A stretch of 64,000 nt of DNA. Origin: Minisyncoccota bacterium (lineage in GTDB: Bacteria; Patescibacteriota; Minisyncoccia; Phycocordibacterales; CAIZLB01). Every line of letters begins with the position of its first letter. The stretch's first letter is position 1. Under the pieces are notes generated by a model. That model was not told where the DNA came from, ran no database searches, and saw only the letters and a list, made by a program, of their open reading frames with translations. The stretch covers positions 5,495 to 69,494 of the forward strand of contig JAGOSK010000002.1 of NCBI GenBank assembly GCA_018062305.1, given 5' to 3'. Made by a program: the position numbers and the translations under genes. Below, piece by piece: positions 6,522-8,545 of the stretch.

Positions 6522-8545
6522 TTTAGTTAGAGTTTGATCCTAGCTCAGGATGAACGCTGGCGACATGGATAAGGCATGCAAGTCGAACGGAAACATTTGA
6601 GATTATATCAATTTTGTTTTAGTGGCGAACGAGGTAGTAATATATAGGTACGTCCCCCAAAGTCGAGAATAACTCATCGAAAGATGAGCTAATACTCGAT
6701 AGTCTCTACGGAGTAAAGTTTTAACGCTTTGGGAACGGTCTGTACGATATCAGCTAGTTGGTAGGGTAATGGCCTACCAAGGCAACGACGTCTAGAGGAG
6801 CTGAGAGGCTGACCCTCACCGATGGAACTGAGACACGGTCCATACACCTACGGGTGGCTGCAGTCGAGAATCTTCCGCAATGGGCGCAAGCCTGACGGAG
6901 CGATGTCGCGTGATTGATGAAGTCCTTCGGGATGTAAAGGTCTTTTATGAGGGAGAAAGTTATTGATAGTACCTCATGAATAAGGGGTTGCTAAACTCGT
7001 GCCAGCAGCAGCGGTAATACGAGTGCCCCAAGCGTTATCCGGAATTATTGGGTGTAAAGGGTGTGTAGGAGGTTGTATTAGTCGTATGTCAAAACTCTGG
7101 GCTTAACCTAGAATCTGCACGCGAAACGGTACAACTAGAGGACGCGAGAGATGTGTAGAACTCATAGTGTAGGGGTGAAATCCGTTGATATTATGGGGAA
7201 TACCAAAAGCGAAGGCAGCACATTGGCGCGCTCCTGACTCTGAAACACGAAAGCGTGGGTAGCGAATGAGATTAGATACCTCAGTAGTCCACGCCCTAAA
7301 CGATGTTCATTTGCTTTTCGGAGTATCGACCCTCTGAGAGGCGTAGCTAACGCGTTAAATGAACCACCTGGGTATTACGACCGCAAGGTTAAAACTCAAA
7401 GGAATAGACGGGGACTTGCACAAGCAGTGGATTATGTGGTTTAATTCGATGGTAAACGAAGAACCTCACCAGGGTTTGAAACCCACGTGAAAGCTCCTAG
7501 AAACAGGAGCCCTCGCAAGACTAGTGGACAGGTGCTGCATGGCCGTCGTCAGTTCGTGGTTTGAATTGTTCCCTTCAGTGGGGTAACGAACGCAACCCTC
7601 GTCGTGTGTTACAAGTGTCACACGAGACTGCCCCCTCTCGGGGGAGGAAGGTGAGGATGACGCCAGGTCAGCATGGCCCTTTGATACCCTGGGCTACACA
7701 CATAATACAATCGCCGTTACAACACGACGCAATACCGTAAGGTGGAGCAAATCGTTAGAAAAACGGCGCCAGTTCGGATTGAGGTCTGCAACTCGACCTC
7801 ATGAAGCCGGAATTGCTAGTAATCGCGGGTCAGATATACCGCGGTGAATACGTTCTCAAGTCTTGTACTCACAATAAAAGCGCGCAGCTGGATATAGCGC
7901 TAAGTCGTTAAAATCGACTCCTTCAAGATCGTCTCTTGAAGCGTAGCTGAAGAATAGCCATAGACCGCGAGGTGTATGGTGGAGGATTCGGAAGCAAATT
8001 GCAGTGTTAATTACTAAAGCTTTCTTAACAGTTAGTTTTGGACGATAATCGAGCTTTGAAAATAGGGCGGTGAGCAAAGCGAAGATTCATAGAAAAATCG
8101 TTTAATAATGCAATAGAACAGTGCTATATCTTACCTGCGGAGATCTGACGTATGTTACGTGAAATTTTATTGAATAAATAAAATTAGCGCGTATAATTAA
8201 ACTTACGCAGCGTCAGAAGTCAGCTGAGTCATAGTAACCTTACATAATTGTGAAAACAAAATGTAAATGAAGGACTCACTCTAGAGATAGTCTGTGTATA
8301 TAAAGCAGACAATGCACTAAATTAGTGTAGCGAAAGCTCCTCTGGAGCTCGCGCAGTGCGGGAAAACCGCTCGCTGCGTGGGAACTTCCATTCACAGTTT
8401 AGTGAAAATATTCGCCCGTCAACTCAAGGGAATCAGGAATACTCGAAATCTCACCTAGTGTGGGCTTACAGTAAGCTTGGTGACAGGGAGTAAGTCGTAA
8501 CAAGGCACGGGTAGCGGAAGCTGTTCGTGGAATCATTCAATTTGA
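6522..8545 (+). rRNA. rrs: 16S ribosomal RNA gene carrying an intervening sequence of about 540 bp near the 3' end
   Basis: AGAGTTTGATCCTAGCTCAG lies at 6529. Conserved blocks are GTGCCAGCAGCAGCGGTAATAC (about 7000), ATTAGATACC (about 7270), AAACTCAAAGGAATAGACGG (about 7393), GGTGAATACGTTC (about 7840) and GTCGTAACAAGG (about 8495). The h45 hairpin with its GGAA loop is at 8506..8529. Length minus the insert is about 1490 nt. Confidence 0.9.
7873..8411 (+). other. ORF-less intervening sequence or putative intron inside the 16S gene (between TGTACTCAC and GCCCGTCA, E. coli position about 1400)
   Basis: The universally conserved TGTACACACCGCCCGTCA is split by about 540 nt of unrelated sequence. 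No ORF longer than 73 aa is present, and that one is antisense with no nuclease motifs. Confidence 0.7.

Follow-up and report, generated by a model that had tools for sequence, protein, structure and literature searches.

A 16S rRNA of the Candidate Phyla Radiation with UUCAA in place of the anti-Shine-Dalgarno core, and start selection that is very likely independent of Shine-Dalgarno pairing

The stretch under study comprises 64,000 nucleotides of contig JAGOSK010000002.1 from a Minisyncoccota bacterium (the whole stretch is called the window below) and contains one 16S rRNA gene. The 3' tail of this 16S rRNA has lost the CCUCC core of the anti-Shine-Dalgarno (anti-SD) sequence and reads UUCAA at its position. 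The protein genes of the window start practically without Shine-Dalgarno (SD) motifs, no replacement motif stands in their stead, and the start regions are unstructured and in many cases close to a promoter-like box. Absence of the anti-SD is heritable across a large Parcubacteria/Paceibacteria clade of the Candidate Phyla Radiation (CPR). Having lost the anti-SD core, the lineage very likely selects its start codons by SD-independent routes.

The 16S rRNA gene lies on the + strand and is divided by a 540-nt insertion, which is described further below. Its 5' region matches the bacterial small-subunit (SSU) model of Rfam, RF00177, at 6522-7924 with 1246 bits; the 5' part proper (6522-7872) ends at the equivalent of E. 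coli C1399 and is 95.7% identical to the uninterrupted 16S of the relative L023, the junction being set by alignment. The region 8380-8900 matches the last 173 positions of the same model (1361-1533) with 62.9 bits (E=1.5e-17). The 3' part (8413-8547) contains the 3' strand of helix 44, helix 45 and the tail, as given by the Rfam alignment and by identity with the relatives L023 and L117, which continues through GAATCATTCAATTTGAAA to 8547 and is then lost. Helix 45, CACGGGUAGC-GGAA-GCUGUUCGUG, occupies 8506-8529 with a predicted folding energy of -12 kcal/mol, and its bases carry the highest posterior probability ('*') in the Rfam SSU alignment. It is followed by GAAUCAUUCAAUUU (8530-8543), where bacteria usually have GAUCACCUCCUUA. 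Rfam places the post-helix bases GGAAUCAUUCAAUU opposite the consensus GGAUcACCUCCUUu, with 13 nt aligned; UUCAA occupies the position of CCUCC, and one additional A stands behind the leading GA. The mature 3' end likely falls within 8542-8547. CCTCC is lacking on the + strand between 6341 and 15518. A first-pass annotation of the sequence had located helix 45 with its GGAA loop at exactly these positions and had read the tail as free of CCUCC, with no CCTCC in the next 300 nt. The covariance-model alignment bears out the helix and the tail, and the next + strand CCTCC is found only at 15518.

In seven independent Logan assemblies (L001-L007; sequencing runs SRR11088367, SRR21621035/38/43, SRR25018341, SRR31968665 and SRR11088428) the sequence from helix 45, inside which their contigs start, through the next 340 nt matches the window without a difference. 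The neighbouring open reading frame (ORF) at 8846-9940 recurs with 100% identity in an NCBI metagenome-assembled genome (MAG) labelled 'Candidatus Pacebacteria bacterium' and on contigs of several independent runs. As the protein of this ORF has only two homologues, relatives were sought by DNA-pattern scans of the helix-45 region. A scan for the CPR-type helix-45 pattern in one genome per species gave at least 120 loci. Among those listed, 55 possess the canonical tail GATCACCTCCTTTCT, nearly all with a helix 45 of the type CATCCG...TGGATG, and 65 lack CCTCC, nearly all with the window type CACGGG...YTCGTG. The listed MAGs without anti-SD belong to Taylor-, Nomura-, Zambryski-, Lloyd-, Jorgensen-, Lipton-, Ryan-, Nealson- and Staskawicz-bacteria and Paceibacter, and a cultured member of this group is Minisyncoccus archaeiphilus PMX.108 (L129); Magasanik-, Moran-, Uhr-, Falkow-, Kerfeld- and Doudna-bacteria are among those with anti-SD. 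At least 120 further loci with the helix-45 type of the window were obtained from metagenomes. Pooled over both scans, this helix-45 type is followed by at least 151 distinct tails of 24 nt, only two of which contain CCTCC.

By 16S the closest relatives are L023 (Candidatus Taylorbacteria, 95.7% identity) and L117 (92%). Both possess uninterrupted 16S genes covering model positions 1-1533 (1370 and 1354 bits), and the first 18 nt of their tails, GAATCATTCAATTTGAAA, are identical to those of the window and diverge thereafter; the homologues thus end as the first-pass annotation read the window. Taylorbacteria belong to the Parcubacteria group, and the 95.7% identity supports affiliation of the window with Parcubacteria/CPR. 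The NCBI label 'Candidatus Pacebacteria' is at odds with this 16S placement. 'Candidatus Pacebacteria' was originally a Microgenomates name, and the label probably derives from the GTDB class name Paceibacteria.

Gene starts were evaluated for 49 window genes, delimited from non-overlapping long ORFs, to which the standard genetic code fits. An E. coli locus with 55 genes passed through the identical pipeline as positive control, and internal ATGs provided a control within each sequence. GGAG, GAGG or AGGA is present at -20 to -4 in 2 of the 49 window genes, compared with 11% upstream of internal ATGs; in E. coli the figures are 29 of 55 genes and 6%. Duplexes of upstream regions with the canonical anti-SD have a mean energy of -0.55 kcal/mol in the window, where control sites give -2.40; for E. 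coli the value is -5.21 kcal/mol, as against -2.51 at control sites (p=2e-12). At least seven starts, those of pyk, secA, three glycosyltransferases, a low-molecular-weight phosphatase and an inositol monophosphatase, are anchored by Pfam domains beginning at residues 2-6, and none of them has an SD. Inspection of some 20 starts had earlier found no SD in any of them, and the full count agrees: SD motifs are not enriched among the 49 genes and, if anything, depleted. The further claim that initiation is SD-independent throughout the genome agrees with all that is testable in 64 kb, its genome-wide part being an extrapolation from 49 genes.

The same pipeline was applied to 8-kb genome loci of relatives (L010-L129). 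Patescibacteria with an anti-SD (228 genes) have a 4-mer SD core in 15% of genes (internal ATGs 11%), those without (260 genes) in 14% (internal ATGs 15%). Relatives with an anti-SD are therefore SD-poor themselves (15% as against 53% in E. coli) and of no use as an SD-positive control within the phylum.

Start regions in the window are characterised by other features. The segment -20 to -1 contains 11% G (about 20% window-wide), A occupies -6 in 34 of 49 genes (69%, p=3e-5) and a pyrimidine -1 in 35 of 49, while A at -3 is not enriched (15/49). The region -20 to +20 is nearly unstructured, with a minimum free energy (MFE) of -1.71 kcal/mol compared with -4.48 kcal/mol at internal ATGs (p=1e-13). 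A -10-like hexamer ends 4-14 nt before the ATG in 19 of the 49 genes (39%; controls 5.2%, p=2e-11), while composition-preserving shuffles give a mean of 7.9 and a maximum of 14 such boxes. Such boxes are present in 26% of genes in relatives without anti-SD and 18% in those with it, as against 5% in controls and 3 of 55 genes in E. coli, and in the relatives their spacing to the ATG peaks at 6-9 nt. Transcription usually starts about 7 nt past the -10 hexamer. Spacings of 4-14 nt therefore predict leaders of about 0-8 nt, too short for an SD, which points to many window mRNAs being leaderless or very short-leadered.

The relB-like antitoxin gene (- strand, region 12087-12050) provides a textbook leaderless arrangement, as far as it can be predicted: TTGACA, 16 nt, TATACT and 7 nt precede the ATG at 12052-12050, i.e. 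a near-consensus promoter lies 7 nt before the start. The gene probably starts here and not at the first in-frame ATG (12109-12107), and the product from this start matches RelB of Pfam with 21.3 bits, below the cutoff of 22.4. The earlier description of a leaderless relBE thus stands on condition that the antitoxin starts at 12052-12050, its RelB assignment being sub-threshold. A YafQ/ParE-like toxin gene lies downstream (11477-11737). A packed array of glycosyltransferase and methyltransferase genes at 18143-27463 (- strand) has gaps of -4 to 61 nt. Several of its genes keep a -10-like box of their own, located inside the 3' end of the preceding gene at 6-14 nt from the ATG, and others overlap as ATGA, which suggests that internal promoters are combined with translational coupling.

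At the former anti-SD position the tail can form a mini-hairpin, UUCA (8536-8539), loop AUU and UGAA (8543-8546), which is recognised from comparative data. Its 5' strand coincides with the former anti-SD position and its 3' strand with the first bases of the trailer. Relatives possess variants such as UCCA/UGGA, UUCC/GGAA, CUCA/UGAG and GUC/GAC, with loops varying freely in sequence and length. Gap-free MAFFT alignments of the tails put the 3' strands out of register and were replaced by a covariance model of the hairpin, built from 17 same-register sequences, with which two disjoint sets of 85 and 83 loci were aligned. All four pairs are changed on both sides in both sets, and about 93% of cells are paired. 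Doubly changed cells number 19 and 21, compared with 2.3 and 2.6 in shuffles (0/500), and shifted registers have much lower scores. Independently of any alignment, a Watson-Crick hairpin of 4 bp that begins 4-8 nt past helix 45 and closes a loop of 3-5 nt is present in 93 of 155 distinct tails without anti-SD (shuffles 17.2 +/- 3.9, maximum 29). A generic test for stems of at least 4 bp anywhere within the first 24 nt could not tell real from shuffled tails (59/66 versus 45/66). Kinship inflates these hairpin counts, and independent compensatory events number at least three or four, not dozens.

Relatives with an anti-SD form a CUCC/GGAG or UCCU/AGGA hairpin at the same offset in 47 of 49 distinct tails (10.2 expected), and intermediate hairpins are UCUCCUU/AAGGAGA (L047), CUCCUU/AAGGGG (L097) and AUUCUU/AGGAAU (L070). 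In our reading the hairpin would descend from the anti-SD/trailer helix of the precursor rRNA, selection maintaining the helix and not pairing with mRNA, and its role is most likely maturation of the pre-16S 3' end rather than mRNA binding. More tentatively, as a serious possibility that falls somewhat short of a preference, the anti-SD/trailer pairing may have been kept by compensatory change after its mRNA role was lost, owing to a function of its own in 3'-end definition, processing or quality control of the 30S platform. Such a function would fit the 16S processing defect, independent of bS21, that results from ablation of the anti-SD in Flavobacterium johnsoniae (PMC13000453).

These features can be combined into the following scheme. 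CCUCC has been replaced by UUCAA through substitution in a Parcubacteria/Paceibacteria lineage; with the core lost, 30S subunits would be unable to select starts by SD pairing, and the mRNAs carry no SD. Starts could be selected by three routes: leaderless mRNAs or leaders of a few nucleotides, transcribed from -10 boxes 4-14 nt before the ATG even in operon-like arrays; A-rich, G-poor and nearly unstructured initiation regions in which A occupies -6 and a pyrimidine -1; and ATGA stop/start overlaps that would allow translational coupling. Within the sampled loci, SD-independence and promoter-proximal starts are probably older than the loss of the anti-SD, because relatives that still have the anti-SD are already SD-poor and show promoter-proximal starts. 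The likely order is that the mRNA side changed first and the rRNA side decayed later, the loss of the anti-SD being the decay of an element no longer used.

Several points weigh against this interpretation. The sample consists of 49 genes from one 64-kb window, and starts were set by a simple ORF rule that is wrong at least once, for the relB-like gene. Leaders and the mature 16S 3' end are predictions from sequence alone. AGGAGG at 5118-5123, already seen near 5120 by the first-pass annotation, precedes the ATG of an orphan ORF (5131-5430, + strand) with a 7-nt spacer. Strong SD-like motifs with the right spacing occur in about 5% of genes in relatives without anti-SD, and in this set SD-like motifs have a positional peak at -11 (14 versus 3.5 expected). 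Remnants of horizontal transfer, a purine-rich enhancer or chance are candidate causes. The mini-hairpin is thermodynamically marginal when taken alone (-1.8 kcal/mol, z=-0.01), and alignments built with a covariance model lean towards the modelled hairpin.

Two observations may be added on these motifs. The frequency of strong SD-like motifs is equal in relatives with and without anti-SD; examples are L050:1958-2410, L129:6906-7844 and L117:4664-5248. The orphan ORF encodes a Cys-rich product of 99 amino acids, and a hairpin terminator lies behind it; neither a Pfam match nor a homologue in about 240 related loci was found for it, despite conserved synteny of the flanking secF-16S region. This gene order is kept in at least 18 related loci (3910-8547 compared with L023, L117, L229 and 15 others).

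The alternative that survives best is that the tail still pairs with the mRNA of one or a few genes, and it is unlikely. It has a precedent in Flavobacteriales, where UCUCA and UCUCU anti-SDs are accompanied by a perfectly compensating extended SD of rpsU, with autoregulation of bS21 (Naeem et al. 2026, PMC13000453). It would also agree with constraint on the tail, the first 18 nt of which are 100% conserved in the window, L023 and L117 although the 16S genes differ by 4-8%. This constraint, however, is explained by the covarying hairpin, and sites of extended complementarity to the tail near window starts (up to 3 mismatches) remain at chance level (18 versus 20.3 expected), with no enrichment in energy; rpsU itself lies outside the window.

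A canonical anti-SD could also be supplied from elsewhere, either by a 3' exon past another insertion or by a second, intact 16S gene, the window copy being incomplete or a pseudogene. The 16S gene does already hold one insertion of 540 nt, and only 64 kb of the genome are visible. This alternative is nevertheless very improbable, as the 16S gene has a complete transcription unit that leaves no room for a hidden exon with CCUCC. Its predicted sigma-70-type promoter (TTGACA, 16-nt spacer, TATAAT; 6212-6239, + strand) is identified by consensus match only and agrees with it in 12 of 12 positions. The leader strand AGAATAAGTTACAGCATC (6399-6416) of a pre-16S leader-trailer helix is the reverse complement of the trailer strand at 8741-8758; the helix, detected as an exact 18-nt inverted repeat, comprises 18 bp with one G.U pair, and its sequence is found at these two places only (0 expected by chance). 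RNAduplex applied to whole leader and whole trailer did not discriminate (-59.9 versus -57.4 kcal/mol in shuffles). The unit, which contains only the 16S gene, is closed by a terminator-like hairpin followed by a T-run (8777-8812), read from the sequence, and a protein gene begins at 8846. This hairpin aligns to the terminator of an Rfam model for an unrelated leader; a simple terminator scan missed it owing to one stem mismatch. The intron-free L023 and L117 end alike and reach full-length SSU scores, CCUCC is lacking in more than 150 distinct tails of related loci, and CPR bacteria have essentially one rRNA copy according to Tsurumaki et al. (PMC9297842). A CCUCC-bearing 3' exon after a further insertion, which the first-pass annotation had named as the case that would overturn its reading, is thus very unlikely.

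Equally improbable is a genome-wide, co-evolved pair of non-canonical SD and anti-SD that matches the new tail, for which the conservation of the tail sequence alone speaks. Pairing to the own tail is weaker upstream of window starts than in controls (-0.78 versus -1.85 kcal/mol), pattern counts are at chance, and no variant anti-SD with a matching variant SD was found among 128 organisms (Amin et al. 2018, PMC6107228); for the window such a pair is largely refuted. A replacement SD complementary to the own tail was rejected on the same duplex energies and pattern counts, and the complementarity of CAU in the tail to AUG is a coincidence, CAU not being conserved in relatives. An artefact of sequencing or assembly, or a chimeric join at the conserved 16S end, might be suspected, since assemblies often break at conserved rRNA and the Logan contigs begin inside helix 45, but it can practically be dismissed because seven independent assemblies read helix 45 into the same tail and trailer, 18 nt of which are shared with the closest relatives, and the loss is clade-wide.

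The insertion in the 16S gene (7873-8412, + strand) is a structured, intron-like element of the decoding-centre region (MFE z-score -7.25). It is missing in L023 and L117, whose 16S reads GTACTCAC directly followed by CGCCCGTCA, and its site corresponds precisely to the C1399/C1400 junction of E. coli. It begins with AAUAAAAGCGCG, which at least 18 homologues conserve at their 5' end, and ends with AAUAUU (AAUAAU in most homologues). At least 18 further CPR 16S genes, from hosts with and without anti-SD, carry homologous insertions of 410-953 nt at this position; these have the 5' end AAUAAAAGCGCNCNGCAG in common, together with a middle and a 3' block. The middle block matches group-II-D1D4-1 with 27.5 bits, below the gathering score of 35. 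The 3' block consists of a domain-V-like helix, with a 2-nt bulge and an invariant CUCGC/GUGGG base containing G.U pairs, and a second hairpin; 10 of the 19 pairs across these two conserved helices covary. The Rfam model Intron_gpII has no match to the insertion at E<=10, and its boundaries, fixed by the intron-less relatives, differ from the GUGYG...AY of group II. The element was placed in neither the group I nor the group II class, as its boundary nucleotides do not fit and Rfam matches are sub-threshold. Insertions in CPR 16S genes are already known (Brown et al. 2015, cited in PMC9297842), and Tsurumaki et al. (2022, PMC9297842) give long insertions for 42% of CPR 16S genes.

With a promoter, a leader-trailer helix and a terminator to itself, the 16S gene constitutes a separate transcription unit that is unlinked from 23S; the Rfam search found no 23S gene in the 64-kb window. 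The gene for tRNA-Ile(GAU) (10080-10153) lies 1.5 kb downstream of 16S, past a protein gene. The usual place of tRNA-Ile(GAU) is the 16S-23S spacer. Inside the rRNA leader, just 3' of the 16S promoter, a G+C-rich hairpin with T-run (6247-6276, + strand) resembles a terminator and may be an antitermination/boxB-like element or an attenuator. A gene for an MTS-domain (RsmC/RsmD-like) methyltransferase stands beside 16S (5486-6142, - strand) and is found among the relatives only in L117.

Loss of the anti-SD is already published for a Parcubacteria subgroup (PMC9297842), and the window is a new example of it, not its discovery. The covarying hairpin, SD-poor relatives with anti-SD and promoter-proximal starts were not found in the literature searched; the first two may be new details. 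Lineages without anti-SD are natural experiments in SD-independent initiation, of which the window is a clean and well-supported CPR case, and the retained covarying hairpin makes it possible to test whether this part of the rRNA has a second role, in ribosome biogenesis. Few bacterial sequences are as conserved as the CCUCC core. If the hairpin has a function of its own, part of this conservation could reflect ribosome biogenesis and not mRNA selection. In practical terms, gene finders and ribosome-binding-site models that depend on SD will misplace starts in these genomes, and 16S 3'-end annotation and primers presuming CCTCC will fail.

Among known systems, the Parcubacteria subgroup of Tsurumaki et al. 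(2022, RNA 28:1041, PMC9297842) is of the same group as the window and has the same absence of CCTCCT. According to the excerpted text, CCTCCT is detected in 48% of Parcubacteria 16S 3' ends, lineages without it overlap the group lacking uL1, and the authors infer that SD helices are not formed there; rplA, the gene of uL1, lies outside the window. The excerpts report the absence of the motif, and not the replacement sequence, a covarying hairpin, SD statistics of genes or promoter-to-ATG spacing. Among 20,648 organisms, 128 lack CCUCCU, mainly certain Flavobacteriales, Mycoplasma and Carsonella, and these are also without SD motifs or a complementary variant (Amin et al. 2018, PMC6107228), a general rule into which the window fits. 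Chryseobacterium, Elizabethkingia, Riemerella, Blattabacterium, Mycoplasma and Candidatus Carsonella (Lim et al. 2012; PMC6107228) resemble the window in having no anti-SD, SD or replacement motif, but are lineages unrelated to its organism. In Flavobacteriales, 11 or more positions of the variant tail pair with the mRNA of rpsU (PMC13000453), whereas no such partner was seen in the window, in which rpsU is not contained.

The 'SD-blind' ribosomes of Bacteroidia (Baez et al. 2019, PMC6847099; Jha et al. 2021; Naeem et al. 2026, PMC13000453) are accompanied by a scarcity of SD as in the window. Initiation in Bacteroidia depends on weakly structured mRNA and on adenines ahead of the start, among them one at -6, and the window has the same features. 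Bacteroidia keep CCUCC, sequestered by bS21, bS18 and bS6 (proteins whose genes lie outside the window), whereas the window 16S has none, and their mRNAs are mostly leadered (mean 33 nt), whereas the predicted window promoters adjoin the start codons.

Mycobacterium, Streptomyces, Deinococcus and many archaea are rich in leaderless mRNAs, with a -10 box about 6-10 nt before the start and many genes without SD. The bacteria among them share the -10 box near the start and SD-less genes with the window, but retain the anti-SD and use SD on leadered genes, whereas the window tail has no anti-SD. Many window spacings (9-14 nt) imply leaders of 2-8 nt, i.e. not strictly leaderless mRNAs, with transcription starts being predicted. 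Finally, a pre-16S hairpin between anti-SD and trailer, with CCUCCUUUCUAAGGA-type ends, is common in Firmicutes and others, and in Bacillus subtilis its 3' strand is removed on maturation. There the anti-SD itself pairs with the trailer; the UUCA/UGAA hairpin of the window holds the same offset, but its 5' strand has ceased to be an anti-SD.

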